Assembly: GCA_035390885.1 (NCBI GenBank)
Contig: DAOOUW010000003.1
Location: 1,432-65,431 of the forward strand
DNA: 64,000 bases
Source of the DNA: Bacteroidota bacterium
Lineage (GTDB): Bacteria > Bacteroidota > Ignavibacteria > UBA10030
Reading direction: 5' to 3'
Part shown: one piece after another, positions 7,715 through 51,202 of the stretch
How the letters are laid out: each line of letters begins with the position of its first letter
Position numbering within the stretch: position 1 is the first letter of the stretch
Made by a program: the position numbers and the translations under genes
The notes under the pieces: model-generated
Databases searched by the model: none
What the model saw: only the letters and a program-made list of their open reading frames with translations
Told to the model about the DNA's origin: nothing

Positions 7715-9973
7715 TTACTCATTTGTGATGTTACCATTTTGTGCGCTCCATACAATACAACGTTTCAAATGGTTGTTGGTTTCTGTTTTTATTCCTTCGG
7801 TTGGCGCAAGGAGCAACGCTTGTGAAAAATACTCCGCCGCTTCTTCGTATCGCAAATCAGTTTCTAACGTCCTGCCAAGATAATACAGGCGAAAGAATTG
7901 CAACACAGGCGATTGAAGATCGCTCGCTTTTTTGAATTCCTCTGATGCGTTGCGAAGCTCGCTATTCGCAAAATATAATTTCCCTCGTTCATAACGAGCC
8001 AATGCGCTGGGGAAGTACGTCAACCGCTGAAGTTTTTCTGAAATATCCAGATTGTATGTTAAAAGCTTGATCCATTCACTCCGCTCGTATCGAAGAGAAA
8101 GCGCTTCCAATCGGAACGCACATGCTTCATCGTATGATTTCGAGAGATGGATTGATGCAAGAAATGCGTATTCACGACGCGCTGCATCGAGCGAATCGAG
8201 TGCAAAGTACGCATCTCCTAACCAGAGCCGAATTGTAAGAAGCGCAATCGCCCATTTTGGATCATCAAGCATCGAAGAGCCGAACTTTACCGCTTCATCG
8301 AACTTGCGCAATGCACAGAGCGAACGTACTTTTAGAAGTACCGATTCTGCTGTTGGGTAATACCCCATTGATTTATCAGCCGTTGCAAGAGCACGTTCGT
8401 AATCCTGTTGTTCAAAGTATATCTGACCTTTTCTGTTTAAAGATGCAATAAATCGTACACACTCTTTCGTATAAGGCGATTGTCGTCGACTAAAGTATAG
8501 CGCTTTAAGAGAATCACCTCGAGAAATTTTCAACTGCGGAAGTTGCTTTCGCCATTGCTTTGTTAATTCGGTTAATGACAGATGATAGCTTCGTTCAAAA
8601 TCGTTCGTACGAAATACAGATTTCATCTTATCAATACCAAACGTATCGACAAGGTATTTACAGAATGAACCCGAAAGCAAATATCCTGTGGATGGCGCCT
8701 GACTTAAAAATCCAGTAGTCGAAAAAAGTTTCGCGATATCAATATCCTGCACAGCAAGGAGCAATGCAGCTGCTCTATCGGTTGGCTCATCGAACCACTC
8801 ATCATCTCCGAGTGCAACCGCAAGCCCTTCCGAGAGACCAAAACTTCTTCCAAGGCGAATTGGCGACCATCCAAATTCACCAGCAAACACATGAACCATT
8901 TCGTGCTTCAAGGCGTCTTCTATAACTCCGGCGTTTATGTGTATTTGATAGAGCCACGGTTTTGTAAAATTTGTTGAGCCTGCGCCAACCAAATGCGCCT
9001 TTTGATCTGAGTTTGCATAGAGAAATAACGTTATTCTTTTTTGCGGAATAACTTTAAGTTTATCCGCCAATTCGTTATAGTAAAATTCCTGAAGCTTTCC
9101 AATCTGTTCGACAGTAGGTCGGCGAATTTTGCCTAACGGATAAACAATATCACAATGCTCTGTAGAATAGAATCCTCCAAGTTTTGTTCGAAGATATTTT
9201 TCCGATGTAAAAAATCCAATTCGATTCCCAGACACGATCATCATAAGCACGAATGGACCGAGCAGAGACATTGCAATAATTTCTGGAAGAGTTCGTCGTT
9301 GGTGAGCCTGTGAATTATCACGATTCTTCAAAAGGGTTTTTGTATTCCAGAGCCACAACGAAAATGCGAAAAGAAAAATTCCAGCTCCAAACGTAACGAG
9401 CCGATACGGAAGTAAACGTGAAACAACCGGAAGGGATTCGTCGTACGTGAATCCCGGGAAAAATCCAATAATTGGAGAAAATAAATATAACTGGGGCGAT
9501 AGAAGAAGTCTCAAGAATGGGAGCAACAATATAAGGAGATAGAAAACAATGTAAAGAGTCTTCTGAAACTTCGGAACAAGCGCCCAAATAAAAAAGGAGA
9601 GCGCACTGCAAAGTACAATGGTTGGAATAAGAATAATGAGATAGAAATAGATGCCACTAAGTATGGAACAATTCCTTACAATGAATGTATTGCCAAGTCC
9701 GAGAAGTAATGGAACAAACGCAAGGAGAAGTGAACCGCCGAAATTTTTTAAATACACCACCCGTAATTGAGAAGGCGTTTGAAAATTTCCGCCAAGAGAG
9801 TGAATATAAAGAAGAAGGAGAAATCCGCTGATGAATCCAACAAGCGGTGCAATTGCAGCGGAGAACTCAAGTCCAACAACATTGAACAATGGAAATTGCA
9901 GAACAGCGACAGAAAAAATAACCAGCACAATTAAGGCAATGTAGTATGATTTGAGTACGCGAGGAGAAGCCAT
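7715..9973 (-). CDS. Polytopic membrane protein with HExxH metallopeptidase-like motif and C-terminal TPR-like repeats
   Basis: The N-terminal ~230 aa are strongly hydrophobic with multiple TM segments. ALKHEMVHVFAGEFG contains HEMVH. The C-terminal third has TPR-like A/Y/L periodicity. Confidence 0.65.
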   Translation of the reverse strand: MASPRVLKSYYIALIVLVIFSVAVLQFPLFNVVGLEFSAAIAPLVGFISGFLLLLYIHSLGGNFQTPSQLRVVYLKNFGGSLLLAFVPLLLGLGNTFIVRNCSILSGIYFYLIILIPTIVLCSALSFFIWALVPKFQKTLYIVFYLLILLLPFLRLLLSPQLYLFSPIIGFFPGFTYDESLPVVSRLLPYRLVTFGAGIFLFAFSLWLWNTKTLLKNRDNSQAHQRRTLPEIIAMSLLGPFVLMMIVSGNRIGFFTSEKYLRTKLGGFYSTEHCDIVYPLGKIRRPTVEQIGKLQEFYYNELADKLKVIPQKRITLFLYANSDQKAHLVGAGSTNFTKPWLYQIHINAGVIEDALKHEMVHVFAGEFGWSPIRLGRSFGLSEGLAVALGDDEWFDEPTDRAAALLLAVQDIDIAKLFSTTGFLSQAPSTGYLLSGSFCKYLVDTFGIDKMKSVFRTNDFERSYHLSLTELTKQWRKQLPQLKISRGDSLKALYFSRRQSPYTKECVRFIASLNRKGQIYFEQQDYERALATADKSMGYYPTAESVLLKVRSLCALRKFDEAVKFGSSMLDDPKWAIALLTIRLWLGDAYFALDSLDAARREYAFLASIHLSKSYDEACAFRLEALSLRYERSEWIKLLTYNLDISEKLQRLTYFPSALARYERGKLYFANSELRNASEEFKKASDLQSPVLQFFRLYYLGRTLETDLRYEEAAEYFSQALLLAPTEGIKTETNNHLKRCIVWSAQNGNITNE

Positions 9974-11469: not shown

Positions 11470-14400
11470 TTACTTCCACTCACACAATGAATCTACATAC
11501 TCCGCTGAACCATCTCTCAACCAACCATCAAGTTGAGCTGGCTCTTTCAGTTGTTGCCCACGGAAGCGAGGCACAACAACATACGAGCATTTCAATTCCG
11601 GCAATGCTGTCATATCGCCCCAGAGTTTTTCATACTGAAGCGTTGGATACACATCTTCCTGACCTTTTCCCCAACGCTTCTTCACATTTTTCAAAGTGAT
11701 GTACGTTGGCATCCTCGACGCAATTGTACGAACTGCCTCGGTTACTTTTTGCTCATCCTTCAATGAATCTCTGGTAAGTCCAAAGACACTGAATATTTGA
11801 TCAATATCAATCCAGTATGTCGCTGAATTGTAGTATGACAAATTAAATTCATCTTCTTCATGCGGCAATGCAATGCCTTCAACCAAACGAATTCTGCCGT
11901 CAATTTTTGCTAATCCACCGCCGCGATCGTCTATTCTCCGTTGAATGACTTCTGCAGTCATTGCGGCTTTTGATTCAATCTGCCATCCAAGGAGAGCAGG
12001 ATCAAGGTTTGCTCCCAATGTATCAATGTTGTGAATAAGAAGATATCGTACTGATGGATAATCCGACAACAACTTTGCCAGAACGCCATTACGGAAAAGA
12101 TTTGGTATTTCATACCAATGTCCAACAGGATGCAGACATTGGAATGGTAGATTATCTGTATAATCACTCGCCTCACCGGTTTTCTGAGCCCACTCCATCA
12201 GTGAAGCATGGAGACTCTCTAAAACTTTTTGAGCTTGTTCATCCAACAATTGCTGTGGCATTTCCTGCCATGCAAATGTGAGGTCTCGAATTGTCGGCAC
12301 CAGACGCAAACCAACATTTCTTCCGGGTGAAAGAAATACCTCGCCTTCGTACCTATAATTTCCCTCTGCTTGTAAAACATCTTGAATTGCTGTATGAGTT
12401 AGGTAACTTGTAGAAATGATATGCGGTATTTTGACTCCGAATGTTCTGTTCGTTCTTCGACTTTTTGCTAAGTGAGTCTCGAGGAATGTTCTATAAACTC
12501 CGCTAAACTTTGCAAAAGGATTCAAAGCCTTCACCGTTCCCGCGCCTTTTGTCCATCTGGTTCCTGCTCCTGCTGCAAGCGTAAGCGCCGCAACAGCTCC
12601 AGAGGCAATTGCATCAGAGCCAATCGATTCATACTGTGGGAACGACTTCTCTGTAAAATCAAAAACCTCATCTTTCTTTACATCCGTAATGAACGTATTG
12701 ACTGGAAGGCGATTTTGCGAAAGCCCAATTCTGCCATTTCTTAAATCAGTCTTAATTTGTTCATGTTGAATTCGGTCGAATCCTAATTGCTGTAACAATT
12801 CATCCAAACTACGATCTTGAGCGCTCTGCACACTACTTACAGGAAGAATGCGATCGATAATTTGTTGAAACATTCCTTCGTAGGATGGATTTGTTTTGCA
12901 AATGAATGTAAAATGCTCAAGCTCGTTTCGTTGTTCCTGCGTAATCGTATGTGGATCCTGGCGAATGATCGAGGGAATCATAAGCGCATAGTACTGCTTC
13001 GGCATCAGCGCATCTGCATTTGTTAGAATTTCACTCCATGTTCCTTTTTCATTAATCGAAAAATCGTAAACGACTGGTTCTATGGCAAATGGAATTCCTT
13101 TTTCGAATCGCTTCTTCTGTTCCTTCATAATTTCTTCGAGCCGAATTTGAGCCTCAGATTTTTGTGAAGGATCGAAAAGGAATCCCATTCCACCGCCCGA
13201 CATTCCACCCAACATCCAGAATCCCCAGAACTTATTTCCAAACTCTGCTTTCACTCTTTCAATAATCGCTTCGGTATATATGTTCGATGCCCATGGAATA
13301 ATCGTTTGGATTGGACCAAAAAAGTTTTCATGCGTCAGTTTTCCAAGCTGAGAGATATTTCCTTTCTTCAATTCCCCAAGGATTTCATCGAAGAGCTCGA
13401 GCGCTTTCAACCGTCCTTTCCATTCCCGCTCAAGTCGAAGCAAATATCGTTCAGTTACCATTTCGAGAATTGGACCGACATCCTGTGCCATTCCTCCATG
13501 GACGAGGATTAAACTGTTCTGAAGTTTCATCCGCGTTTTTTCGGAAACCTCATTGTAATCTAAAATGGTATGACGTGGAAGTAAACAGCCCCGACTTACT
13601 CCAAATTCAATATCGCCTTCCTGACTTTTTACTCCTTCGATGAGTTTAATTCCAGGCCAGACACCACCCGAATCCTGCCATCCACCGCCAGAGCCGCCGA
13701 GCCATTCGCCAAGAATTGCTCTTGCTGCAACGGTACGCCGTTCGATTTCCGATAACGAGCCTGTCAGCGAGCCAATTTGTCCTGTTGCACGCATACAAAC
13801 TGTAATAATAGAAGCAAGTAATGTTGTTGACACAGCTAACCGAGAACCTTTTGGGATTCCATTGACCTGACTTACTATTTCAATTCCGAGTCCTGGTCCG
13901 ACTAATTGCTCCAACAAATCGGCAATTGGCTGATTCGTGCCTTCCATACTGGATGGAACAATTCCGGAAGCAATGACAGCAGCTTTTAATAAACCAAGAT
14001 AATCCGCAGCAAAATCGAACAATTGACGGAACGTCGTTATTTCCGAAACTGCGCCAAGATCAGTACTCACTAAACGGATTATCGGTTCTTCAATTACCCG
14101 AAAGAATACTTCTACGGGAGGTTGAGGAGTATGAGTGCGCTCTCCTCCTCGTACAGAAAGATCAATTGAAATGTTGAGGACGCGGGCTCCTTCGGGAAAA
14201 TCCATTCCAAGGAAGAAAATATCGCTCCATCCGCTATGGGATAAATCCATCCGCACAGGAGTTTGTTCGTGAAGAATTGGATACAGTTTATTCTTCTTCT
14301 GCGTCAAGACTTGCTTTATTCGTAAGGGATGATCGGATGGATGTCCGATACGAAACATCCACTGATTTCCTCGAACTGAACGCACACTTACCTTTACCTG

Positions 14401-14790
14401 ATTTGCAAGAGTTTGAAACCCTAGATTCCTATATGCTTCTGCGAGTGCGCTCGAGAGTCCATCGCTTGGTCCATTTCTCTTTTGTGCAGAAAGAAATTTT
14501 TGAATTGCTTCTTCAAATCGACGATAGAGAATATCCTCATACGCATCGAACGGAATTGTACCACCTTTTGGAAATCCTTTCTTCATCGGCAAATAAAATC
14601 GATGAATCGCATAGAGAAAGAAAAGCGCTCGAACTTGTTCGTAGAGATTATTACTCGTCATCCGAAACTCTTCGAGACTTTTACATTCGTTTAATAATTC
14701 ATCAATTGTTGCAGAGCTACAAAAAGTTTCTAAGGATTGATTCCGAATTTCAGGATTATCTGATACAATATACTCAATCAATTTGCTCAT
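11470..14790 (-). CDS. Fusion protein: unknown N-domain + fucokinase-like GHMP sugar kinase + UDPGP-type nucleotide-sugar pyrophosphorylase
   Basis: GHMP motifs IPKGSRLAVSTTLLAS, GGSGGGWQDSGGVWPGIK (fucokinase-like GGGWQD) and GGMSGGGMGFLFDP. The C-terminal half has LAAGAGTRWTKGAGTVKALNPF and LLIHNIDTLGANLDP, typical of the UDPGP family. Confidence 0.75.
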   Translation of the reverse strand: MSKLIEYIVSDNPEIRNQSLETFCSSATIDELLNECKSLEEFRMTSNNLYEQVRALFFLYAIHRFYLPMKKGFPKGGTIPFDAYEDILYRRFEEAIQKFLSAQKRNGPSDGLSSALAEAYRNLGFQTLANQVKVSVRSVRGNQWMFRIGHPSDHPLRIKQVLTQKKNKLYPILHEQTPVRMDLSHSGWSDIFFLGMDFPEGARVLNISIDLSVRGGERTHTPQPPVEVFFRVIEEPIIRLVSTDLGAVSEITTFRQLFDFAADYLGLLKAAVIASGIVPSSMEGTNQPIADLLEQLVGPGLGIEIVSQVNGIPKGSRLAVSTTLLASIITVCMRATGQIGSLTGSLSEIERRTVAARAILGEWLGGSGGGWQDSGGVWPGIKLIEGVKSQEGDIEFGVSRGCLLPRHTILDYNEVSEKTRMKLQNSLILVHGGMAQDVGPILEMVTERYLLRLEREWKGRLKALELFDEILGELKKGNISQLGKLTHENFFGPIQTIIPWASNIYTEAIIERVKAEFGNKFWGFWMLGGMSGGGMGFLFDPSQKSEAQIRLEEIMKEQKKRFEKGIPFAIEPVVYDFSINEKGTWSEILTNADALMPKQYYALMIPSIIRQDPHTITQEQRNELEHFTFICKTNPSYEGMFQQIIDRILPVSSVQSAQDRSLDELLQQLGFDRIQHEQIKTDLRNGRIGLSQNRLPVNTFITDVKKDEVFDFTEKSFPQYESIGSDAIASGAVAALTLAAGAGTRWTKGAGTVKALNPFAKFSGVYRTFLETHLAKSRRTNRTFGVKIPHIISTSYLTHTAIQDVLQAEGNYRYEGEVFLSPGRNVGLRLVPTIRDLTFAWQEMPQQLLDEQAQKVLESLHASLMEWAQKTGEASDYTDNLPFQCLHPVGHWYEIPNLFRNGVLAKLLSDYPSVRYLLIHNIDTLGANLDPALLGWQIESKAAMTAEVIQRRIDDRGGGLAKIDGRIRLVEGIALPHEEDEFNLSYYNSATYWIDIDQIFSVFGLTRDSLKDEQKVTEAVRTIASRMPTYITLKNVKKRWGKGQEDVYPTLQYEKLWGDMTALPELKCSYVVVPRFRGQQLKEPAQLDGWLRDGSAEYVDSLCEWK

Positions 14791-15662
14791 TGAGTATTCC
14801 TTTCACCCGAGCGTTGATCTCGAAGAAGGAGTATTTCCATAATCATCGAAATAACCTGATCCCGTTCTTTGCCACTAAGGGAAAACGCAAGTTGTGCATT
14901 GAGAAGTCCATATTTAACGCCAATATTGTAGCGATGATCGTTCATTTCGAGAGCAAGGTACTTTTCTCTCTTCGTTAATTCCTGAAGCGCTGTTGATAAA
15001 GTACCCTGTTCTTTATTCTTATCATCATTGTTGTTCATTTCGTCTTCGAGAATTTCCATCACCATTGGCGTCAGGACATGGATACCAAAGAAACATAAGT
15101 AAAAACCTGCTCGTAACCCTGGTACAATCAAAGATTGCTCGGCTTCAGTTGGCGTTGGTTTTTCAATCACTCGATCCACAATGTAAAGATCATTCTTTCC
15201 TTGAACTCGTTTTCCACTGACAGCTCCATAGTTTGAGAGAAACACTTCGCGCGTAGCCTGAACTGCCGATACGGTGCAAGATTCAGCTTCAGCCATTTCA
15301 ACTACTCTCTGCGCGCATCCTTTTTGAGCGGAGCTTAAAAACAAATGATCGCCAATTAAATGAAGAAATGGTTCTCCTCGTACAAAATCTTTTGCACACA
15401 AAATTGCATGTCCATATCCTTTCGGTTCTTCCTGCTCAACAAATGTCAGATATCGGGCATGTTCTCCGGCAACAGAATAGAACGCACTTTTATCATCCGG
15501 ATGAACAACAATGCAAATATCTTTTACACCAGCTCGAACAACTTCATCGAGAATAATTGTGAGCACCGATTTCTGTTGTCCATCTCTGTCAATGAGCGTT
15601 TGAAGCGGCAGGTTCCTCTGTCCCTTCCCTGCAGCTGTTATTACAGCTTTTGTAATTTTCAT
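14787..15662 (-). CDS. Sugar-1-phosphate nucleotidyltransferase, divergent GalU/RmlA-like
   Basis: MKITKAVITAAGKGQRNLPLQTL resembles the GxGTRxLPxTK NTP-transferase loop, with GKGQR in place of GxGTR. Its stop overlaps the downstream start as ATGA (14787-14790). Start at ATG 15662, which begins the conserved N-terminus. Confidence 0.7.
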   Translation of the reverse strand: MKITKAVITAAGKGQRNLPLQTLIDRDGQQKSVLTIILDEVVRAGVKDICIVVHPDDKSAFYSVAGEHARYLTFVEQEEPKGYGHAILCAKDFVRGEPFLHLIGDHLFLSSAQKGCAQRVVEMAEAESCTVSAVQATREVFLSNYGAVSGKRVQGKNDLYIVDRVIEKPTPTEAEQSLIVPGLRAGFYLCFFGIHVLTPMVMEILEDEMNNNDDKNKEQGTLSTALQELTKREKYLALEMNDHRYNIGVKYGLLNAQLAFSLSGKERDQVISMIMEILLLRDQRSGERNTQ

Positions 15663-15804
15663 ACTGAACCCTTTGTGATATTGTAAATTCAAAAGAGAAA
15701 AATCAATTCCAAGCCCAAAACAAATGACTTCTACTTTTATAATTTGTAAAAGATTATCCTCTTGTGCAAAGATTATTCTTCTTCAATATATACAATAATG
15801 ATAG

Positions 15805-15947
15805 CAGTAATGAAGATGAAGAGAAATAATAAAGTAGGAGAAAGGAAGTGTGATCAAAATGGTTGCTTCAATACAAGCTATCGCTCACCTCAGCCACCGT
15901 CAGAAATTGGTCGCTGAGGTGTTGTAAGGCATATCGAAGCAACCATC
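15805..15947 (-). repeat. Full copy of the intergenic palindromic repeat (core 15861-15943 plus AT-rich flank module)
   Basis: GGTTGCTTCAATACAAGCTATCGCTCACCTCAGCCACCGTCAGAAATTGGTCGCTGAGGTGTTGTAAGGCATATCGAAGCAACC folds as a long hairpin. The reverse complement of 15805-15860 aligns with the ATTTTGGTT..TTCTTTCGCCT..ATTATTT.ACTTCATCTTA flank of the copies at 44592 and 62827. Confidence 0.85.
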
Positions 15948-15972
15948 TATGTCTTTAATTCATAATTCGAGT

Positions 15973-18375
15973 TTATTTAAGAAGAAGCAATTTCTTCACC
16001 TGAAGCTGCGAACCAGCTTGCAAATACGCAAAATAGATGCCACTCGGTAGAGATGAGCCATCGAAAACTACTCGATGTTCACCTGGCTCTTCCTCTCTAT
16101 TTACCAGCGCCGATAATTCCTCCCCAAGAATATTATAAATCTTTAATGATACATGAAGGCGGGAACGTACCGAATAAACAATCGTTGTCGTTGGATTGAA
16201 TGGGTTTGGAAAATTTTGTTCCAGGTACACAGAACCAGGAGTAGAAACGCTTGCATTTTCAACCTTATCAATGAGTCCATATTCAAAACATCCAAGATCA
16301 GGCGCACTGCCAGCATACGGTATTCCAACATCTACCCCAGCATCTATGAATTGACTTGTTGACGCAAGATGCATAAAAGGAACGTCGGGTAAACTTCCAT
16401 CCGGATTACGCGGTCCTCGCACGCCAGCAGTATCAACAGAAACAAAATCATTTGCAGTTGCTCCGGTAAACGGCGATAGCCAGCTATTCTTCTCCTGAAT
16501 TGTAGAACTCCAGATTTTACCATAGCTACCAAGCACAATACAATTTTTGATTGTTAATGTTTGGTCAGTCGTTAAAGGACCAGGAACCCCAAAGTTATAA
16601 CCACCATTACGATACGCAGTACAATTAAAGAGCGTCATCGAACCACGGTTGTTATTCTCATCAAATCCTTTTGCAAGATTATCAAATGCAAGACATTTCC
16701 GAAGAGTCATGATATGCCGTAAATTATCTGCATTTGAGTTATCGCCTCCTCCCATTTTAAATCCGTTGCCATTCCCTTTACCTGCAGAACCATCTTTCAA
16801 ATATCCATTCCGAAAGCTCCAGCAATTTTCAATCGTTGTTACCACACTGTCTGCGGGACGAAGATATCCATCCCATCCATCATCAGAGTTCTGCCATGCG
16901 CGACATCCATAGAAATAATTTCCCGTCCCGACATCTAACTTTGGCGCAAATCCGTCAGCATCTCCATCGGTCGCATCTCGATTATAATATGAATCACAAT
17001 TGATGATTCTATTGTAAGCTCCACCGCTTGCAATCTGAAGACCCGTATTTCGATTTTCATAGAACGAACAAAATTCTACAATGTTATAATTCCCGGTAAT
17101 GCGCATACCATTACCTGAAGAACCATAAATATCTATCCCTTTGATATACCAATAAGAACCTGAGAGCTGAATACCATAGCCAGATATTTGAGATGAAAAA
17201 TTCAATAGGGGCCGTTCCGTGTCTTTTGGATAGCCCACAATAATCATTCGAGAATCGGCTGTACCGCTCTTCGATAATGATACAGTCGAAGTTAGAGCAT
17301 AATTACCTCCTCGAACGAAAATTGTATCGCCAGGTATTGCAACGCTCACAGCTTTTGAAATTGTAGAAAATGGCGAATCGAATGTGCCGGCGTTGGCATC
17401 ATTTCCATTCGTTGCCACAAAAATACCAAGGATATAATCCGCTGAGACTGCTGTACCAGAAACATTCAGAGTAAGAGAAGCAGCGCCTCCACCTGAAATC
17501 GAAATCGTGCCACTGTAATCTCCTTCTGATGCTGGTGAAAATCGTGCATAGATAGTTGTTGCCGATAGAACTCCTCCTGTGTACGGTACATTGATTGAAG
17601 AACTAAAGTCATTATTTGAATTTGATGAGACTAAAAATCCTTCAGGTGCAGAGATTGTAATCGTTCCATCTTGAGGATGAAGATCTGTTCCGCTTACAGT
17701 AAAGTTCTTCTGGCGAAATGCGTTGACGTTGATAGTACCAAAAGATAATGAATTTGGTGAAACGACAAGAGAACCTGTACCAACCGCGGCAACCGATCCT
17801 GCAATTGTAACATTCTGCAATCCAACCGATTTTGTCGAACACACAGCCGTTGCCCATGGATAAATTAGCAAATAAAATGAATTACCATTTGGAATTAGAA
17901 CGTTAGGAGAATACGAATACAAAGTACCATCGGTATTCGCTAATGTTATTGCCGATTGCAATAGTGTTCGAGATGAAAAATTGTTACTTGAATCTGTTGC
18001 ATAATATATGCTTGCCTTAATATAACTTGATGATCCCGACCAGCCTATTCTGAACGAGACTGTAGAAATAGTAAGCGAGTATCCTTCGTTGGGCGCAACT
18101 CGAAATGCAAGATATCGAGTTAGATTTTCACCAGTTTCGGCAACCCAATTACCGCCAGCATCTGGCCCATTTTTTTGGTAGGCGCCGTACGTTGATGAAG
18201 TAGAATAACTCCGGACAACCATATTACTCCTAAAAACTGAATCAGCAACAATAGGACCATCGACGGTTGGATTATTACTCGATGAAAGCGGCCATGTAGC
18301 TGTTACACTTTGCGCCGCTGAATGCGTTGTAAATATGCCACTAAGAAATGCCAATGTAAATATAAATCGTTTCAT
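15973..18375 (-). CDS. Secreted right-handed beta-helix pectate lyase (PL9-like) with T9SS C-terminal sorting domain
   Basis: Signal peptide. DATDGDADGFAPK, NSDDGWDGY and GNGNGFKMGGG resemble PL9 lyases. The C-terminus LEQNFPNPFNPTTTIVYSV...GIYFAYLQAG..VKKLLLLK is a T9SS CTD. Confidence 0.75.
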   Translation of the reverse strand: MKRFIFTLAFLSGIFTTHSAAQSVTATWPLSSSNNPTVDGPIVADSVFRSNMVVRSYSTSSTYGAYQKNGPDAGGNWVAETGENLTRYLAFRVAPNEGYSLTISTVSFRIGWSGSSSYIKASIYYATDSSNNFSSRTLLQSAITLANTDGTLYSYSPNVLIPNGNSFYLLIYPWATAVCSTKSVGLQNVTIAGSVAAVGTGSLVVSPNSLSFGTINVNAFRQKNFTVSGTDLHPQDGTITISAPEGFLVSSNSNNDFSSSINVPYTGGVLSATTIYARFSPASEGDYSGTISISGGGAASLTLNVSGTAVSADYILGIFVATNGNDANAGTFDSPFSTISKAVSVAIPGDTIFVRGGNYALTSTVSLSKSGTADSRMIIVGYPKDTERPLLNFSSQISGYGIQLSGSYWYIKGIDIYGSSGNGMRITGNYNIVEFCSFYENRNTGLQIASGGAYNRIINCDSYYNRDATDGDADGFAPKLDVGTGNYFYGCRAWQNSDDGWDGYLRPADSVVTTIENCWSFRNGYLKDGSAGKGNGNGFKMGGGDNSNADNLRHIMTLRKCLAFDNLAKGFDENNNRGSMTLFNCTAYRNGGYNFGVPGPLTTDQTLTIKNCIVLGSYGKIWSSTIQEKNSWLSPFTGATANDFVSVDTAGVRGPRNPDGSLPDVPFMHLASTSQFIDAGVDVGIPYAGSAPDLGCFEYGLIDKVENASVSTPGSVYLEQNFPNPFNPTTTIVYSVRSRLHVSLKIYNILGEELSALVNREEEPGEHRVVFDGSSLPSGIYFAYLQAGSQLQVKKLLLLK

Positions 18376-18387
18376 GATTGTCTTTCT

Positions 18388-20016
18388 TTATTTTAATAAG
18401 ATCATCGTTTTGGAAATTTTTCTTTCTTCTATTTGTAGCTCATATACATAGAATCCAGACGGCAAGGTTTTACCATCAAAAGTAGCTGTATTCTTGCCAG
18501 CTGGACGCATTCCTTCTACCAATGTTCTCACCTGCTGTCCAAGAACGTTGTAGACTTTAAGTGCAACAAATGCCGAATGCGGTAACTCAAATTCAATTGT
18601 TGTTGTAGGATTGAATGGGTTTGGAAAATTTTGTGCAAGATTAACTTTTTCCGGATATCCGCTCTGAGTTAAATTCCCAACGCTCGTTAATGTGCTTTCT
18701 CCAACAAGACCATTGAGATATTCTTCCAGCATGGTATATCCTGCAGAAGAAATTGTATTGCGATCTGTTGAATCATTTGGATTGAGTCCATGAGCTCGTT
18801 CCCATTCATCTGGCATTCCGTCTTTGTCGCTATCTGTTGGCGCAGGGGCGCTTGCCAGTAAAGGCCAGCCGCCTTCAGGTTGGCTATCCAGTGAATCAAT
18901 AGAATGTCCCGTTCGATTGAGTACATCGCTGATAATTCTTCGATCTATTGTATCTCGTTTTGGAAAACTTGCTCCAGCGCTTGCAAGCACATCATCGAAC
19001 GCTTGTTGCGGTGAGGTAGTAGTGACGGGTTCCATCGGAATAAGCGCTGAACGAGCTTTATAGGCGTTCTTTCGTTCTGTTGTAAATTTACTCCCCCATT
19101 GTACTAAACTCCATTGATCAGCAGGAATATTCCCGTTGTACATATTGTCTGCAAAATAGGCATAGGCTCTGTAAGCATCCTCTTTGAATGCTATTCCTGA
19201 AACGCTCGATTCGGTACCGGGTATATAAACATTACCGATAAAATTATAATGGCTTATCGAAGCTGTGTCGGCATTGTATCCCGGGGAAGTACCTTTCCAA
19301 TTATAAACAACATTATTTCTGAAATCGAAATACAATCCTATCGTATCCGTTGGATAATTGGTGTAATTCCCGGGACGTGGAAGACGATTATTGTTATGTG
19401 CATAGAGATTATGATGATAAGTTTTCTGATCGCCATAATCGCCTCTTACCAGCGAACCATAACTATGACTCTCAAAAGTCAAGGCTTCACTAATCAGACA
19501 CCATTGCACTGTAACTTTATCAGATTTTTCCTGGCAAGAAATTCCTTCATCACGCGCATAGGATGCTGTTACATGATCAACAATGATGTTAGAGCCACTT
19601 TCTATATCAACGGCATCACCTGAAGAATTGGCAGCGCCAGCGTCAACTCGAACACGAATGTACCGAATTACCACGTTCGAGGCGCTAATTTGGATCCGAC
19701 CTTTAAGACAAATACCATCGCCGGGTGCTGTTTGACCCGCAATGGTTGTATTCGATTTTGGTTTTAAGATAACGCTACCGAGTGAAATTGTACCGGATAC
19801 TTGAAATACAATTGTACGATTTCCTTGACTCACGGCATCGACGATCGAACCAGCCCCACTGTTATTCAAATTGGTTACGATATACACGTTCCCACCGCGT
19901 CCGCCCGTTGCAAACCTTCCGCTTCCCTCCGCAGAAGGAAATGCGACTTGTTGAGAGTAAAGATGTACAAAAAGGAACATTATAAGACAGCTTATCTTAA
20001 GGAATAATTTCTCCAT
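18388..20016 (-). CDS. Pectate lyase (PL1-like) with Ca-binding TSP3-like linker and T9SS C-terminal domain
   Basis: FPSAEGSGRFATGGRGGNVYIVTNLNNSGAGS, DAVDIESGSNIIVDHVTASYARDEG and NNRLPRPG. The linker is DSDKDGMPDEWE. The CTD is LAQNFPNPFNPTTTIEFEL...GFYVYELQ. Confidence 0.85.
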   Translation of the reverse strand: MEKLFLKISCLIMFLFVHLYSQQVAFPSAEGSGRFATGGRGGNVYIVTNLNNSGAGSIVDAVSQGNRTIVFQVSGTISLGSVILKPKSNTTIAGQTAPGDGICLKGRIQISASNVVIRYIRVRVDAGAANSSGDAVDIESGSNIIVDHVTASYARDEGISCQEKSDKVTVQWCLISEALTFESHSYGSLVRGDYGDQKTYHHNLYAHNNNRLPRPGNYTNYPTDTIGLYFDFRNNVVYNWKGTSPGYNADTASISHYNFIGNVYIPGTESSVSGIAFKEDAYRAYAYFADNMYNGNIPADQWSLVQWGSKFTTERKNAYKARSALIPMEPVTTTSPQQAFDDVLASAGASFPKRDTIDRRIISDVLNRTGHSIDSLDSQPEGGWPLLASAPAPTDSDKDGMPDEWERAHGLNPNDSTDRNTISSAGYTMLEEYLNGLVGESTLTSVGNLTQSGYPEKVNLAQNFPNPFNPTTTIEFELPHSAFVALKVYNVLGQQVRTLVEGMRPAGKNTATFDGKTLPSGFYVYELQIEERKISKTMILLK

Positions 20017-20081
20017 CGCTTGCTCGCTTTCCTGACTGAACTTAAAATATACAATGAGTTACTATGAAGCTATTGGCTACA

Positions 20082-21356
20082 TCACCGAATGGTAAAATGC
20101 CACAGCGTTCCCGGAATTGTATCGGTTGGCGTAATTTCATCAACTCGCCAATAGTACGTTGTATGAGGCTCGAGTTTCTCAGTATTAAAAACTGGAACAT
20201 CTTGCTCGTCAATAAAATTAAGCGCCGGTGGTTTGATGGAATATTTGGGAGCTTTACCTAAATATATCCGAAACGATTTTGCATTCCTCGATGGAAGCCA
20301 GCGAAGTTGTACCTGAGATTGCGAAAGATATACTCCATTACGAGGCGAGGGCATAGAAACAAAGGGAAGCGCCCGAGGCAATGAATTTTCTGGATCCCAT
20401 TGACCATCGAAAGTCCATTTTGCTGTTACGTCTTCTGGTTTTGGTGAACCTTCGGCAGCGCTAAGATTATCAGCAAACCAATCAAAATCTCCGCCAATTC
20501 TATGGCAATTGTAATAATAATGACGTGCGCCCCATTTCCATGGTCCGCTGGTCGTTGTCGGTGGATAGTAAATTGGAATGTCTGCCATTGTATTTGAAAA
20601 AATACAATCGAGCAAATAAATTTGCCCATCACGATGATTTCTGCCGAGAGGAAAGTTTGGCACTCCATCAAAGTATGAGTACCGTATCACAAACTTCTGC
20701 TTCTTGTTCGCACTTCCATCGTGCCAAATTGATGCGCTCAAGTTATGACCGTAAAACCGAGAATCGGTTATGTAGCACCATCCGCGTGGACAGACATAAT
20801 CGACCCATCCTTCAAAATAACAATTCGCATGATAATACATTCCATCTTTTCTATTCCAGAGGCTCACTGTATCTGCTCCATCCGCAATGACGTTACAATT
20901 GAGAAGAATGATTCGTGTACCATTTCCGTAAATTGCAAACTGATGATCGTGGATGCCGTGCAGCGCGCCATAATTATTGTAGATGGTTAAATTTGCAAAT
21001 GTAAGATCGTGGACAGAAGAATCAATATTCACTACAGCGCAGCCAAAATCATCATTTCCATGTTCTTTGCTCCATTCGCTTCGAAGCTGAGCAAATACTA
21101 TCCGGGTACTATCTCTATCTTCTCCAACAATGGCAATATTGCTCTTCTTTATCAGAAGCTTTTCGTTATATGTACCATTCTTTACAAGAATAACAATTAG
21201 ATTCTCATGCTGTTGAGGCGCTGCATCTAACGCTTGTTGAATCGAAGTATACTGACCGCTTCCATCTTTTGCTACAATGATATCCGCACGTTCATAGCCC
21301 ATTGCACAATTCATTAGCAATAAGCACATGAAAACCAACTTCCATAATGGTTTCAT
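20082..21356 (-). CDS. Pectin methylesterase (CE8-like, divergent) with C-terminal Ig/Fn3-like domain
   Basis: IIVAKDGSGQYTSIQQALDAAP is the classic CE8 N-terminal motif. QFAIYGNG, ADGADTVSLW and VDYVCPRGW sit where QAVAL, QDTL and DFIFG are expected. Signal peptide present. Confidence 0.7.
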   Translation of the reverse strand: MKPLWKLVFMCLLLMNCAMGYERADIIVAKDGSGQYTSIQQALDAAPQQHENLIVILVKNGTYNEKLLIKKSNIAIVGEDRDSTRIVFAQLRSEWSKEHGNDDFGCAVVNIDSSVHDLTFANLTIYNNYGALHGIHDHQFAIYGNGTRIILLNCNVIADGADTVSLWNRKDGMYYHANCYFEGWVDYVCPRGWCYITDSRFYGHNLSASIWHDGSANKKQKFVIRYSYFDGVPNFPLGRNHRDGQIYLLDCIFSNTMADIPIYYPPTTTSGPWKWGARHYYYNCHRIGGDFDWFADNLSAAEGSPKPEDVTAKWTFDGQWDPENSLPRALPFVSMPSPRNGVYLSQSQVQLRWLPSRNAKSFRIYLGKAPKYSIKPPALNFIDEQDVPVFNTEKLEPHTTYYWRVDEITPTDTIPGTLWHFTIR

Positions 21357-21428
21357 AACATTCTATAACCTTTCTCCACCCTAAACTTTAATACTATCGC
21401 ACTAAACCATGGCGCTTCATAAATTTTA

Positions 21429-23078
21429 TTATTTGATAATGATCGCTTCGTTCGTTGCTCCATTTGTAACTTCGAAAGCCTTCTTTGCGTTTTTTGCATC
21501 TTGTTGTGAAATACGAATATCTCTGGTTCCGGTTCCCTCTGCTCGGACATAAAGACTCGTTCCTTCCGGGAATGAAATCTTTTGAGCGTCAACTCCTTGT
21601 ACATTTCGCACCGTCAGAACAGGAGATTGTTTAAATCGAAGATCAATATTCGTGAATTGAATATTCTGTGCATCTTGCAAAATAATTGCACGATCGGCTA
21701 TGAGTGTAGCATTCGTTAGAGCGATGTGGTTCACTGGACGATCGACAAGTCCCTCCATTCGTACTCCGATTGATGCTCCATCGCAACGAATATTATTCAT
21801 CGTAATGTTACGGAACTCTGGCACTCTGGACTTATCGCTAACATCCACCGTAGTATCGCCGCCGTACGACATATCAAACAGTATTGCTTCTTTCGAAATA
21901 TCTTTCATCCATACTCCATCAATGACAATGTTTTCAACAAGTCCGCCTCGACCTCGCGCCGACTTGAAGCGTAATCCAACATCAGTCCAGATGCACGTAA
22001 GATTTCGAACATTGATGTTCCTTGCATTTCCATACGACTCGCTCCCTATGACAAATCCTCCGTGAGCATGGTACACGATGCAGTCTGCGATAATAATATT
22101 TTCACAGGCAGGTAAGTCTTTTGTTTTACGATTTGGCACACCAGGCTTTACACAAATTCCATCATCTCCTGCGTTTACTACGTTATTGTACACAAGTACA
22201 TTTCTGCACGATGATAAATCGATTCCATCGCCATTCTGCGCCCACCATTCATTATTGAGCGACATATTCCGAATAATAACATCCGAACATTGTGTAGGGT
22301 GGACTGTAAACTTTGGTGAATTAACAAACACCGGTCCATCGATAAGAATTGTTGAACAGTCATAGAACACAAGCAAGTCTGGTCTTACGTATTCTTTCGT
22401 AGCAACATAATCAGCTGAATCTAATTTTTTCTTTTGAGCTCGAAGATTCTCAAGATACTTAGGAGCATCGAGTGCAGCTTGCGATGGCATCCATAATGTT
22501 CCATCTTTACTTACTGCTCCTCCTGACTCCACAAGTTTTTTCCACTGATTGGGTGGCAGTTTCTCTTTTTTCACAGGATGCCAGTATTGTCCATTTCCAT
22601 TGAACACGCCTTTTCCTGTAATTGCAATATTATTCAATTGTTCACCGTAGATTAAGGACATTCGAGAGTACGATGAGCTTCCTGCTCTTCGAATAAAAGG
22701 CGTATCATCGATGTTCGGTGAGAATACCACAACAGCGCCTTGTTCCAGATGCAGATCGACATTGCTCTTCATCAATATTGGACCTGTCAGCCACAATCCC
22801 GGAGGAATGATGACTCTTCCACCGCCTTTTTTGGCAATGGCTTCGATAGCATTATTGATAGCCGCAGTGTTCATCGCAATTCCATCGCCGACTGCGCCAT
22901 AATCTGTAATTGACACTGTTACATTTGGAATTTGTGGTAACGGCGCTTTTGGCATATCAAAATTTAATTTTTCATAATAACGATCAGGAACTTGCTCATA
23001 CGGAATAAATCCCTGAGCATTGCAAAATAAAAATGGCGCTACTATTGCAATAAGTAGAGCTTTATTGAGTCTCTTCAT
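21429..23078 (-). CDS. GH28 polygalacturonase, secreted
   Basis: NGDGIDLSSC, AGDDGICVK, HGGFVIGSE and RFKSARGRGG are GH28 signature blocks. Signal peptide MKRLNKALLIAIVAPFLFCNAQG. Start placed at ATG 23078. Confidence 0.9.
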   Translation of the reverse strand: MKRLNKALLIAIVAPFLFCNAQGFIPYEQVPDRYYEKLNFDMPKAPLPQIPNVTVSITDYGAVGDGIAMNTAAINNAIEAIAKKGGGRVIIPPGLWLTGPILMKSNVDLHLEQGAVVVFSPNIDDTPFIRRAGSSSYSRMSLIYGEQLNNIAITGKGVFNGNGQYWHPVKKEKLPPNQWKKLVESGGAVSKDGTLWMPSQAALDAPKYLENLRAQKKKLDSADYVATKEYVRPDLLVFYDCSTILIDGPVFVNSPKFTVHPTQCSDVIIRNMSLNNEWWAQNGDGIDLSSCRNVLVYNNVVNAGDDGICVKPGVPNRKTKDLPACENIIIADCIVYHAHGGFVIGSESYGNARNINVRNLTCIWTDVGLRFKSARGRGGLVENIVIDGVWMKDISKEAILFDMSYGGDTTVDVSDKSRVPEFRNITMNNIRCDGASIGVRMEGLVDRPVNHIALTNATLIADRAIILQDAQNIQFTNIDLRFKQSPVLTVRNVQGVDAQKISFPEGTSLYVRAEGTGTRDIRISQQDAKNAKKAFEVTNGATNEAIIIK

Positions 23079-23170
23079 TTTATTTCCTTTCACCAATAAT
23101 GACAGATTACACACGCACTAACAAATCAAAATCGATAATATGCTCAATGCTTAAAAATGCAATTCGCCGC

Positions 23171-24697
23171 TTAATATATTTTTGGCGCTTCGCTTAACAA
23201 CCATCGAAACATGGCAACCCCAGCATCCCAGTTTTCATATCCCTCCGGCAATCGCCGATTGTCGAAATATTCATTATAGAGCCATGGATCGCCAACGGCA
23301 ACAACACATCCTTTTCCATATCGAGCGGTTGCCATCACTATAATACCATTTGCGGTCAATAATGGTTTTGCCGGCGGTTGTGTTTTCAACGATGAAACTT
23401 CTTTGATAAAAATATGATCGACACCCTTGAACGCAGGATGTTTCGGAAATTTTGTTATCCTTCCCATATCATAATTATCGTTCTTCACCATAAAGTTATT
23501 ATCTTCGTTGAAATGAATTCCGAACTCAGTTGCAAGTTTATTAAGATGCTCGAATTCACAATTCCCATTATCATTCGCTAACAAAACAAGCCTACCGCCT
23601 TGTTCCACCCATCGTTTAATAACTGCAATATCAGCGTCAGAAATTATATGTGGTTCTTTCGTCTCCTTCGGCGTATCTGGATCAACAATGATGTAAACAC
23701 TAAAATGCCTTAGCACAGAATCAGTTGGAGGAGATTGTAGCGTGTCGAGATCTGCGCCCAGCCAATCGATAACACGACCCAACTGGGAGAATCCACTATT
23801 CGTGGTGTCTTCCCAGATATAGTGATATCGCTCAAGTGAATCTTTTCCTTTTACTGGTCTCCATTCATTATTGAAGTAATAGTCTAAGCCAACTACTTTT
23901 CCAGCGCCAACAAACGGTGAAGCTGGAAGCTCGACGAGCTCCTTTGCTAATGGCAATTTAAGTTCTTTGATCCCATCTACTACAATTTGCGCCATTTGGA
24001 AAGCGCCAGTTCTTGTAAAATGCGTATGATCTTTCTTTTTATTCCAATTCCTGAATTGACCATCCTGAACGCCTGCAAGATATAACGGCCGAGATTTTAC
24101 TTCGCCTAATCCTCCAACGAGTTCCTTTGATTTTTCAAATACATCGATCAGAGGCGCGTTTTCTTCAGTGGCAACTTCTTTCATTGCAGCAGGATAATCA
24201 TAATGCGTTGCTATAAATTCTCCTTTTTCATTAAAATCATGTCGTATAACCGGCGTCAGCAAAATAGGAATGGCTTGTTTTTCACGAGACTCTCGAATAA
24301 ACTTTCTCAGGTTTTCTTTGTAATCTGGTCTCGCTGGCGCATACCGATTTGGGTCTTCCTTCTTTGCATCGTTATGCCCAAATTGAATAAAGACATAATC
24401 GCCAGGCTGCAACTGGTCGTAGATTACCTGCCATCTGCCTTCATCAATAAAACTTTTTGTACTCCTGCCATTGCGTGCATGGTTGTACACGGTAACGTTC
24501 TTAGAAAAAAACATCGGGAATATCTGTCCCCATCCATGCTCTGGATTATCAACTAATGGTTTGTCAGCCATCGTTGAATCGCCGATAAGGAATATACGGA
24601 TATGATTTTTTTGTGGAGCTTGAGCGACAAACGCACAAAGGAGTGAAATAAGCAGCACGCTGAGGATAATTGATTTTATATTCGGTATTCTATTCAT
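23171..24697 (-). CDS. SGNH/GDSL esterase (CE12 rhamnogalacturonan acetylesterase-like) fused to a ~250-aa C-terminal domain of unknown function
   Basis: IFLIGDSTMADK is the SGNH block I. Also GWGQ, QFGHND and DHTHFT. Start at ATG 24697, preceded by GGAGGAAATT. The C-terminal half (YYFNNEWRP... to the end) is a separate domain. Confidence 0.75.
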   Translation of the reverse strand: MNRIPNIKSIILSVLLISLLCAFVAQAPQKNHIRIFLIGDSTMADKPLVDNPEHGWGQIFPMFFSKNVTVYNHARNGRSTKSFIDEGRWQVIYDQLQPGDYVFIQFGHNDAKKEDPNRYAPARPDYKENLRKFIRESREKQAIPILLTPVIRHDFNEKGEFIATHYDYPAAMKEVATEENAPLIDVFEKSKELVGGLGEVKSRPLYLAGVQDGQFRNWNKKKDHTHFTRTGAFQMAQIVVDGIKELKLPLAKELVELPASPFVGAGKVVGLDYYFNNEWRPVKGKDSLERYHYIWEDTTNSGFSQLGRVIDWLGADLDTLQSPPTDSVLRHFSVYIIVDPDTPKETKEPHIISDADIAVIKRWVEQGGRLVLLANDNGNCEFEHLNKLATEFGIHFNEDNNFMVKNDNYDMGRITKFPKHPAFKGVDHIFIKEVSSLKTQPPAKPLLTANGIIVMATARYGKGCVVAVGDPWLYNEYFDNRRLPEGYENWDAGVAMFRWLLSEAPKIY

Positions 24698-24731
24698 AAT
24701 TTCCTCCAATCTACATTAGTTCTAATTACAC

Positions 24732-25501: not shown

Positions 25502-27088
25502 TCATTCCCAAAAAGTTGGTATTATATACGATACACTTACTATCAAATTCTGAACAATTTTCTTATTGACGCTTGCTGAGTTAGACCATGTATCTGTATA
25601 TCGTCTATCAGAATATTCATACGCAACATTGAGTGTTGCACCAAAACCTGAAACACCTAAACCAATGGAGTAAACAGGGTATCGAACACTTTTTCCTCGC
25701 AAAGGATTAGTCGCCGGTTGAAATACATCCCCAATCTCACTAACGCCTGCGCGCAGAGACATCCATTTTACAGGTGCATACTCTGCACCAATCTTTATTA
25801 CCGAGTAAGAAAGCCATGGATTGGTATCGGAAACATCGTTATTATAGGTTGCCGACTCATAAGGAAGTATTTCGTATTCAAATCCAAGGACAATGTTTTT
25901 TCTTAAAGCAGCGGAAATACCAATGGAGCCACTAAATGGCAATTTCATCTTATCTTTCCCATGAATAGAGGTATTAGTTACCGCATGGGCTGAATCAATC
26001 TTGCCATTGTTATATGATGTAATTGTAGAATCTTTCCATAATGTATAAGAATAATCACGTGTAATTGTGGTAGGAGGTTTTAAGGTAAATCCAACAGTGA
26101 GAAATGGAGATTTATATGTGCTGCTAATGGTAAAATCGTACCCCGAATAGGTTGATTTTCCGACCTTTCTCCAACTTGTCATTCCGACCTTATCTAATCG
26201 AATAGAGCTGTAATAAAATAACGCTCTACCTCTACCCACACACACTTCCTCGTCATCTGTTTCTCCATCTAGATACATTCCACTTATTCCCACTGAAAAT
26301 TTTGGCGAAATCTCTATTGAAATTGCGCCGCCATATCCATAGATAGAGCCATTTCTATATTGAGAATATTGATACCATTGAACCGGCAATGGTCGTTTTG
26401 TTGGTGTTGCAGTAGAATCGGCTGTTGGCAATAAGCTCATTTGCCATTGGCTTATCCCATGCGCAACATCAAGAACGTTTGGAGAAAGCGTGTTATTATT
26501 TTGGTAAAACCAATTCAAGTTTGCATATTCGACAGCCCCAATTCCAACAACAATGTGATAATTGGCAAGTTTGAACGGCGCAGTAATAAATGCTTGCAAA
26601 GGAAGTGAAACATTCTTCGACCTATCCCAATTTGGCATTATAGTATCAAAAGGCCTTTGAATTGAATCTGCTTGAGTCGGTGTTTTCCCTTTTTGGATGA
26701 GAGAATCATAATAAGCGCTTGGTCGATCAGGAATTTTTGTCCGATCCAATAACGTTCCATCCAAAAGCAACATAAATTGTTCATGAGATTGCAATGTACC
26801 ATAATGCTTTTCTTGCTTTTGATCAATGTACTGTTGATAACCGCCCAGTGAAATTTGCAAACCCTTGACCGTAGTTAATAATGCCGGGCTTTGAAACATA
26901 ATCGATGGATCGTTTTGAATTCCAAACAAGATTCCACCAGCTCCACGTGACACTACTGACTGATTTGTCCTGTAATTCAAACCCTGCATTTGAAGAGCTG
27001 TTCCTTCTTGAGCCATTATATCTTCATTGCTTATAAGTATATTGGCCACAATAATTATCAGCGTAAAAATATAATTATTCCGTTTCAT
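25502..27088 (-). CDS. Outer-membrane beta-barrel protein, FadL/PorV-superfamily-like
   Basis: Signal peptide ending in ...IMAQEG and amphipathic beta pattern throughout. Its start overlaps the upstream stop (TAATG at 27086-27090). Confidence 0.55.
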   Translation of the reverse strand: MKRNNYIFTLIIIVANILISNEDIMAQEGTALQMQGLNYRTNQSVVSRGAGGILFGIQNDPSIMFQSPALLTTVKGLQISLGGYQQYIDQKQEKHYGTLQSHEQFMLLLDGTLLDRTKIPDRPSAYYDSLIQKGKTPTQADSIQRPFDTIMPNWDRSKNVSLPLQAFITAPFKLANYHIVVGIGAVEYANLNWFYQNNNTLSPNVLDVAHGISQWQMSLLPTADSTATPTKRPLPVQWYQYSQYRNGSIYGYGGAISIEISPKFSVGISGMYLDGETDDEEVCVGRGRALFYYSSIRLDKVGMTSWRKVGKSTYSGYDFTISSTYKSPFLTVGFTLKPPTTITRDYSYTLWKDSTITSYNNGKIDSAHAVTNTSIHGKDKMKLPFSGSIGISAALRKNIVLGFEYEILPYESATYNNDVSDTNPWLSYSVIKIGAEYAPVKWMSLRAGVSEIGDVFQPATNPLRGKSVRYPVYSIGLGVSGFGATLNVAYEYSDRRYTDTWSNSASVNKKIVQNLIVSVSYIIPTFWE

Positions 27089-51050: not shown

Positions 51051-51202
51051 AAGCGTCTTTCATTGAATGTTTGAATTTCGATGATGTAAGATACAAGAAA
51101 CTTCTTTCTTAAACATCATTGGTAGGAATTTTTCGCCGCGCTGGTTTCTTGCTCCTATCAGTAAATTTCACTACCATTTCCAAAAGTATAAATCAAATTG
51201 TT

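Follow-up and report, generated by a model that had tools for sequence, protein, structure and literature searches.

A mis-annotated bacterial family joining a fucokinase-like kinase to a UDPGP-type pyrophosphorylase, with a GalU-like partner

In a 64,000-nucleotide stretch of contig DAOOUW010000003.1 (assembly GCA_035390885.1) from a Bacteroidota bacterium of the Ignavibacteria, the whole of which is hereafter called the window, one gene on the reverse strand encodes a protein of 1106 residues that appears to join a sugar kinase to a pyrophosphorylase of the UDPGP type, and a gene for a second, GalU-like nucleotidyltransferase lies directly before it. The question raised by this locus is which sugar such a fusion would activate, and why it should be accompanied by a second nucleotidyltransferase. 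The original prediction, made from the letters alone, regarded the fusion as a one-polypeptide salvage enzyme and a pectin-derived sugar as a plausible substrate. Our analysis revealed a real, uncharacterised and mis-annotated family, which is an architectural variant of a known enzyme logic. With a probability of roughly 0.55, the two genes form a self-contained module in which a bifunctional anomeric kinase/uridylyltransferase would make a UDP-hexose-like sugar together with an obligate GalU-like partner. We infer what the enzymes do, in which order the steps run, which sugar is involved and what the partner contributes, and word these points accordingly below.

The fused kinase and pyrophosphorylase

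The single open reading frame (ORF) of 1106 residues carries every motif quoted for it beforehand, namely PKGSRLAVSTT at residues 313-323, GGGWQDSGG at 368-376, GGMSGGGMGF at 528-537, LAAGAGTRW at 738-746 and NIDTLGANLDP at 921-931, and domain mapping recovers the two modules in the predicted order, the GHMP kinase by way of the FKP model and structure and the UDPGP module behind it. In NCBIfam, the FKP model (PRK13412 equivalog) matches residues 171-561 with an E-value of 3.5e-25 over profile positions 608-954 of 974; the whole protein scores 87.9 bits against a cut-off of 721 and thus falls outside the FKP equivalogs. A sequence search of the PDB pairs residues 172-558 with the FKP kinase domain (1.7e-15), and a profile of diverse family members finds the same kinase at 6.5e-20 and heptose kinases at 0.03-0.1, with no profile match at E <=1 to the galactokinase-type kinases (GalK-, GalAK- and AraK-type). 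A full-length AlphaFold2 (AF2) model, of modest confidence with a predicted local distance difference test (pLDDT) score of 63, has the two-domain GHMP fold, and Foldseek gives template modelling (TM) scores of 0.71 to the kinase part of FKP (9iip) and 0.70 to the heptokinase WcbL (4usk). Altogether the kinase is predicted to belong to the fucokinase/HddA branch of the GHMP superfamily.

Residue conservation was scored over 75 full-length fusion homologs from about 12 phyla and over 60 partner sequences. When the functional residues from the FKP structure paper (PMC11982464) are mapped onto the kinase, the catalytic R592, E751 and D762 (the general base) and the metal-ligand S719 correspond to R180, E362, D373 and S321, and the sugar contacts W599, D601 and Q761 to W188, D190 and Q372, all of which are present in 75/75 homologs. 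The fucose contact T602 is replaced by isoleucine (I191) in 74/75, and the adenine-pocket residues D644 and I669 are kept as D244 and L267. In the P-loop, PKGSRLAVST, R317 stands for G715 of FKP and an Ala for G717 throughout the main clade (75/75), and the divergent relatives read P(K/R)(G/N)SGLAVST, with the canonical Gly present. A pyrophosphate-dependent kinase, considered as an explanation of the P-loop Arg, was set aside because the adenine-pocket residues are kept.

For the second module, Pfam detects in the C-terminal part the sole family that it finds in the protein, UDPGP (PF01704; 54.8 bits against a gathering cut-off of 22). Residues 880-1000 match eukaryote-type UDP-glucose pyrophosphorylases (UGPases, UGP) in the PDB sequence search, and among UDPGP enzymes the family profile matches UGPases at 1.9e-26, UDP-GlcNAc pyrophosphorylases (UAPs) at about 5e-10 and UDP-sugar pyrophosphorylase (USP) at about 0.009; by Foldseek, the same model of pLDDT 63 reaches a TM of about 0.47 to UGPases and UAPs. 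With the functional residues of A. nidulans UGP taken from PMC10470519, the alignment pairs L121, G124 and K135 with L738, G741 and K754, then G227, H228, N256 and D258 with G890, H891, N921 and D923, and E307 and N329 with E971 and N988, K292 being conservatively replaced by R956. The sugar-binding N331 corresponds to A990, a position held by Ala, Ser or Asn across the family, and K403 is probably K1082, which was placed by the motif VPRxRxxxxK only; for Q198 the alignment yields no counterpart. In 73-75 of the 75 homologs K754, H891, N921, D923, E971, N988 and K1082 are conserved. The C-terminal left-handed beta-helix is absent, the protein stopping 24 residues past K1082. Residues ~561-720, between the two domains, probably make up the helical region at the N-terminus of the UDPGP module. 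Judged by the mapped residues, neither module seems to lack anything needed for catalysis, and their sugar pockets, though similar to the fucose and glucose pockets, are not identical to them.

Ahead of the kinase, about 300 residues without a recognisable motif had been described. The lack of relatives holds, but the part without assignment shrinks to about 170 residues because kinase homology begins at residue 172. Residues 1-170 give no sequence match in Pfam, NCBIfam or the PDB, the profile search of the PDB included. Modelled alone by AF2, residues 1-171 form a helical bundle with a mean pLDDT of 84 (>90 for residues 1-130), for which Foldseek returns from the PDB nothing but non-significant helical-repeat matches (best E 0.94, TM <=0.36).

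The partner gene, its spread and its neighbourhood

The gene upstream had been read as a nucleotidyltransferase of the GalU/RmlA fold with a GKGQR loop that overlaps the fusion gene by ATGA, and so it proves to be. It matches NTP_transferase of Pfam at 1.9e-11, the GalU model at 1.1e-29 and YngB at 3.5e-21, its C-terminal two thirds aligning with YngB at 1e-16 for that stretch; the score of 103.8 bits on the GalU model (TIGR01099), against a cut-off of 326.8, leaves it outside the curated family. Its start is placed at the ATG at 15662 and not at the TTG at 15692 because homologs begin MKI(T/A)KA. The 4-nt overlap is read as translational coupling of the two genes.

In RmlA/GalU-type enzymes the triphosphate loop handles the pyrophosphate leaving group. 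In the partner this loop is remodelled to AAG-x-x-Q-R...PLQT, where Q15 and Q21 occur in 60/60 sequences and R16 in 55/60, the Thr of GxGTR has become Gln in 60/60, and the Lys of PATK is missing, its position being Thr in 52/60. The VEKP and GD motifs are retained (E167, K168, P169 and D105, 60/60), and the uracil Gln, Q77, is invariant in a four-sequence alignment. Ordinary pyrophosphorylase activity of the partner is doubtful because the altered loop is the very part that handles the pyrophosphate, and a role that is regulatory, like that of GalF, or otherwise altered is plausible. Among the relatives of unusual length that we examined, none carries the partner fused onto the main protein.

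Our survey of the distribution found at least 593 confirmed matching stretches in about 12 phyla of a one-genome-per-species collection, with full-length homologs at 65-77% identity in Ignavibacteriales, Anaerolineae, Pirellulaceae, KSB1, Acidoferrales and Bacteroidota. In public records both genes (P0001-P0120, P0273-P0392) bear the name 'UTP--glucose-1-phosphate uridylyltransferase' or 'hypothetical'. The mean identity of the fusion is 0.64-0.69 between phyla and 0.63-0.80 within them; 225 of its 1106 columns are invariant, the kinase domain being the most constrained part (30% invariant) and the inter-domain region the least conserved (9%). The pair is under very strong purifying selection.

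The neighbourhoods were compared in 80 main-clade loci for ORFs within 8 kb, in 92 loci for the recurrence of the window's neighbours and in 57 loci for spacing. The partner lies directly 5' of the fusion gene on the same strand in 75 of the 80 loci, the other five being contigs with less than 1 kb of upstream sequence; the spacing is -10 to +30 nt in 41/57 loci, the 4-nt overlap occurs in 16/57, and the partner is still present beside a relative at 45% identity. The GalU-like gene is thus an obligatorily linked partner of the fusion gene. No third recurrent gene emerged from ORF clustering in the 80 loci, the next being generic response regulators (9 loci), and a linked sugar-phosphate isomerase or phosphatase was found neither in the window nor in these loci. 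Similarly, the window's neighbours (MurA, aldo/keto reductase, TPR protein, pectinesterase and others) do not recur in the 92 loci except for one GH28 gene, the lone pectin gene among them, at 2 kb from the pair in the closest relative. A conserved adjacency to pectin genes or MurA was rejected on this count (1/92), and a defence-system origin was rejected with no PADLOC match.

Two homologs deserve separate mention. On the 243-kb plasmid NZ_CP095065.1 of Hymenobacter volaticus, a cultured strain, the pair lies at 51136-55422 (L092); there the partner is annotated 'sugar phosphate nucleotidyltransferase', and the fusion gene, which has no listed coding sequence and matches in 4 pieces, may be a pseudogene. 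In the oxymonad Blattamonas nauphoetae, a homolog of 1292 residues with the degenerate nucleotide-binding loop LASRVCSGW (P0147, KAK2962578.1) may have come from bacteria by lateral gene transfer.

The divergent relatives, at 29-36% identity and mostly from Omnitrophota, are without the GalU-like partner. In P0141 (2318 residues) and P0151 (2939 residues; L006:10001-18820) the module is fused to ROK sugar-kinase and IMPase/FBPase-like domains, and P0146 is followed by ROK and by a PPDK-like gene. In P0164 (29% identity; L090:148-5432 of contig NODE_3542, ENA ERZ27393189), which has the canonical P-loop Gly and likewise no partner, a beta-phosphoglucomutase-family HAD hydrolase and a 399-residue protein with a GmhA-like SIS domain are encoded on the 5' side, which makes the locus a predicted NDP-heptose-like gene set around a UDPGP-type transferase. 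Such enzyme company suggests, by analogy with GDP-heptose synthesis, sugar-phosphate substrates in this clade rather than salvage. In P0243 the order is permuted, with UDPGP ahead of the kinase and with NUDIX and FBPase_2 genes in the neighbourhood, and the helical domain that is N-terminal in the window's protein remains joined to the kinase. As side observations, P0151 adjoins a gene for 7976 residues with HAD and Glycoamylase domains, and the loci L087 and L089 group with the Omnitrophota-type giant proteins that carry the fused module.

Proposed function and its rivals

In the reading that we favour, the GHMP domain would transfer a phosphoryl group from ATP to the anomeric hydroxyl of a hexose-like sugar, or of a sugar phosphate, by an FKP-type mechanism, where D373 would be the general base and R180, E362 and S321 would line the phosphoryl-transfer site. 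The UGPase-like module would then transfer UMP from UTP to the sugar-1-phosphate and release a UDP-sugar, where the phosphates would be handled by K754 and K1082 and the sugar phosphate by H891, and where Mg2+ would be bound by D923. The co-translated GalU-like protein may bind a UDP-glucose-like or glucose-1-phosphate-like ligand, most likely as a subunit that regulates or scaffolds in the manner of GalF, or else as a second transferase whose chemistry would have changed along with its pyrophosphate-handling loop. Fusions of the kinase with the UDPGP module occur in either order, the reverse one in P0243, and therefore their functional coupling is supported. Of the one-polypeptide salvage enzyme originally proposed, the kinase/pyrophosphorylase with complete residue sets stands, but 'salvage' is unproven, and the contexts of the divergent relatives point, at least for their clade, to de novo chemistry based on sugar phosphates.

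Several points weigh against this reading. The Pfam models GHMP_kinases_N and GHMP_kinases_C give no match at E <=0.1, and it is because these models miss the domain that the kinase has been overlooked in public annotation. The Arg in place of G715, together with the Ala in place of G717, could mean that ATP use is altered or abolished. Plain glucose and fucose are both improbable as the sugar, because N331 of the A. nidulans enzyme has given way to Ala, Ser or Asn and T602 of FKP to Ile. A simple two-step pathway leaves the need for a second, GalU-like protein without explanation, and the full-length model is too weak at pLDDT 63 to judge domain orientation or channelling between active sites.

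It is possible, though we say so tentatively, that the two proteins form a complex with three active sites (kinase, UGPase-type and GalU-type) that makes a UDP-sugar by an undescribed route, for example one that starts from a hexose or hexose phosphate, proceeds by anomeric phosphorylation and does not depend on phosphoglucomutase, or that yields an unrecognised UDP-sugar. The invariant P-loop Arg and the remodelled GalU loop would in that case reflect new chemistry or allosteric control, and the product would be important enough for about 65% identity over 1100 residues in more than 10 phyla and for transfer to an oxymonad.

A de novo route through a sugar bisphosphate is rather unlikely on balance. 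Here the kinase, in the manner of HddA, would phosphorylate a sugar 6- or 7-phosphate at C1, the distal phosphate would be removed by a phosphatase whose gene lies elsewhere, and the UDPGP module would activate the resulting sugar-1-phosphate, so that the pathway would be biosynthesis from central metabolites and not salvage of a free sugar. In fold, the WcbL/HddA heptose kinases are as good a match as FKP (TM 0.70 against 0.71), and the company of the divergent relatives speaks the same language: P0141 is fused to ROK and IMPase/FBPase-like domains, and others stand beside ROK plus PPDK-like, beta-PGM-family HAD plus GmhA-like SIS, or FBPase_2 plus NUDIX. However, such contexts are confined to the divergent clade of Omnitrophota type, whose P-loop keeps the canonical Gly and which has no partner, whereas no phosphatase or isomerase recurs near the main clade; moreover, the kinase is far closer in sequence to FKP, a free-sugar kinase (6.5e-20), than to the heptose kinases (~0.03-0.1).

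The salvage of pectin-derived galacturonate or glucuronate to a UDP-sugar, tied to the neighbouring pectin locus, has become very improbable. The pectin genes announced upstream are indeed there, directly upstream and on the same strand (Pel9A-like, pectate lyase, pectinesterase and GH28); UxaE and GH88 lie close to the pair in an Anaerolineales locus, the closest relative has its GH28 gene, and the invariant extra P-loop Arg could in principle bind an anionic substituent. Yet a pectin gene accompanies the pair in only 1/92 loci, no carbohydrate-degradation gene recurs, and the family spans phyla of very different lifestyles; the kinase, of the fucokinase/HddA branch, is without similarity to GalAK-, GlcAK- and GalK-type kinases, and the UDPGP module resembles UGPase (1.9e-26), with USP (~0.009) as its weakest match. 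In addition, a 310-bp gap separates the pair from the pectin genes. It contains, after the pectate-lyase-like gene, a 9-bp GC-rich hairpin (~15886-15921) and then an AT-rich stretch with an AAAGGG ribosome-binding site, and is probably the pair's own promoter region; a promoter and terminator scan of it gave weak consensus matches, not above the shuffled background, and no riboswitch or leader RNA is matched by Rfam anywhere in the window. Because the neighbours are unrelated in the 92 loci and this gap with its hairpin and AT-rich stretch intervenes, the association with pectin is most likely incidental.

We give just as little credit to an Isselbacher-type shunt, in which the kinase and the UDPGP module would convert a sugar X to UDP-X, epimerisation would follow elsewhere, and the partner would run in reverse (UDP-glucose + pyrophosphate to glucose-1-phosphate + UTP). 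UTP and pyrophosphate would thereby be recycled, and the pair of pyrophosphorylases would do the work of a GalT-type uridylyltransferase. Such a shunt would explain the constant pairing of two pyrophosphorylase folds with one kinase, and the partner does retain the glucose-1-phosphate-side motifs VEKP and GD and the uracil Gln, but its pyrophosphate/triphosphate loop, with Thr changed to Gln in 60/60, no PATK Lys and an Arg that is not universal, is unfavourable for pyrophosphorolysis, and no epimerase is linked in the 80 loci. Least likely of all, the kinase-like domain would be a non-catalytic sensor or regulator and the protein a regulated UDP-glucose pyrophosphorylase as now annotated, for which the departure of GSRLAVST from the GHMP consensus, the silence of the Pfam GHMP models and the UGPase name in databases may be cited, but which sits badly with a general base, Arg, Glu, metal-ligand Ser and sugar contacts invariant in 75 sequences, with the adenine-pocket residues kept, with a kinase domain more constrained than any other part and with divergent relatives that retain the canonical Gly loop.

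The window and the known systems

Table 1. Features of the gene pair in the window, with the evidence for each
Feature	Position	Strand	Evidence
Fusion gene, 1106 residues	11470..14790	-	ORF with kinase and UDPGP homology
UGPase-like UDPGP catalytic module (predicted), residues ~721-1106 and stop codon	11470..12630	-	PF01704, profile
Inter-domain region, residues ~561-720	12631..13110	-	Profile matches to UAP/UGP N-terminal regions, positions ~650-800
GHMP kinase domain, predicted fucokinase/HddA branch, residues ~172-560	13111..14277	-	NCBIfam, PDB, profile, Foldseek
N-terminal all-helical domain, residues 1 to ~150	14341..14790	-	AF2; without detectable relative
ATGA stop/start overlap of partner and fusion gene	14787..14790	-	ORF coordinates
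GalU-like NTP_transferase partner gene, 291 residues	14787..15662	-	Pfam, NCBIfam and YngB matches
Intergenic region 5' of the pair	15663..15972	-	Sequence read

Besides the pair (Table 1), the window holds a pectin-degradation cluster at 15973-24709, 27088-28116 and 33460-34815, with Pel9A-like, pectate lyase, pectinesterase, two GH28 and GDSL esterase genes, where at least the two lyases have type IX secretion sorting tails and where a PorV-like gene and a 968-residue outer-membrane-type protein with a CarboxypepD_reg domain are also encoded. On the other side of the pair, a predicted multi-pass membrane protein of 752 residues with C-terminal TPR repeats and an HExxH-like motif (KHEMVH), encoded at 7715-9973 (-), may be a membrane metalloprotease, and its gene runs into the start of the aldo/keto-reductase-ferredoxin gene downstream. 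For a 261-residue ORF at 301-1086 (+), the match to the GH130 mannoside phosphorylase model is confined to the C-terminal positions 122-318 of 320, and the ORF may be truncated or mis-called at its start. A 1624-residue ORF lies at 35950-40824 (-), and a 700-residue ORF further upstream at 40866-42968.

FKP-type bifunctional kinase/pyrophosphorylases are key tools both in the production of nucleotide sugars and in the study of how sugars are salvaged, and the present architecture, with the kinase first, a eukaryote-type UDPGP fold and an obligatory second, GalU-like subunit, differs from theirs. The family is widespread in the environmentally dominant Chloroflexota, Acidobacteriota, Verrucomicrobiota, Planctomycetota and Bacteroidota/Ignavibacteria and is as strongly conserved as core housekeeping proteins are, yet both genes are annotated just as 'UGPase'. 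To identify the substrate would fill a gap in the nucleotide-sugar metabolism of these phyla and correct a systematic annotation error, and might also yield a one-pot biocatalyst.

Taking the known systems in turn, the partner shares with GalU, YngB and GalF the fold, the VEKP and GD motifs and the uracil-binding Gln, but differs in that GxGTR has become G-x-x-Q-R with an invariant Gln and the PATK lysine is absent; the loop changes are reminiscent of GalF, a weakly active regulator, but the substitutions are different ones. The C-terminal module has its best match (1.9e-26) in the eukaryote-type UGPs (A. nidulans 8C0B, human 4R7P, Arabidopsis 2ICY), with which it shares the GH, NIDxLGA, D-x-(K/R)-GG, VE and YxN...W motifs and both catalytic lysines; unlike them, it has no C-terminal beta-helix oligomerisation domain, has one sugar-binding Asn replaced, carries a large insertion between the nucleotide loop and the GH motif, and is fused behind a kinase.

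The pathway to GDP-D-glycero-alpha-D-manno-heptose (GmhA, HddA, GmhB, HddC) likewise combines an anomeric GHMP kinase of the same branch with a nucleotidyltransferase, and the divergent relatives adjoin a GmhA-like isomerase and a HAD phosphatase, whereas the main clade, the window included, has no linked isomerase or phosphatase and its fused nucleotidyltransferase is of the UDPGP fold. In plant salvage by GlcAK/GalAK and USP ('Sloppy'), and in zebrafish DrGKUP (PMC3938481), which is also a fusion, the step of a GHMP sugar-1-kinase is again followed by that of a UDP-sugar pyrophosphorylase, but the kinase is of another branch, USP is a weak match (~0.009) and a conserved uronate link is missing here. 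DrGKUP has an N-terminal NTP_transferase-type domain, and both known fusions, FKP and DrGKUP, have the opposite order and another pyrophosphorylase fold; our literature searches found no description of a kinase-first, UDPGP-type architecture.

FKP of B. fragilis (PDB 5YYS, 9IIP, 9IIT) is the closest kinase relative (1.7e-15 to 6.5e-20; TM 0.71), and the catalytic residues and three of its four fucose contacts are kept. It also unites kinase and pyrophosphorylase in one polypeptide, and the order of the genes here, the NTP_transferase gene and then the kinase, mirrors the order of its domains. As was predicted, however, domain order and pyrophosphorylase fold set the two apart, for the pyrophosphorylase here is C-terminal and of the UDPGP fold, whereas FKP has an N-terminal NTP_transferase domain with a beta-helix. 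The P-loop Arg for Gly, the Ile for T602 and an extra helical N-terminal domain of 150 residues add to the difference, and the nucleotide is likely UTP here in place of the GTP used by FKP.

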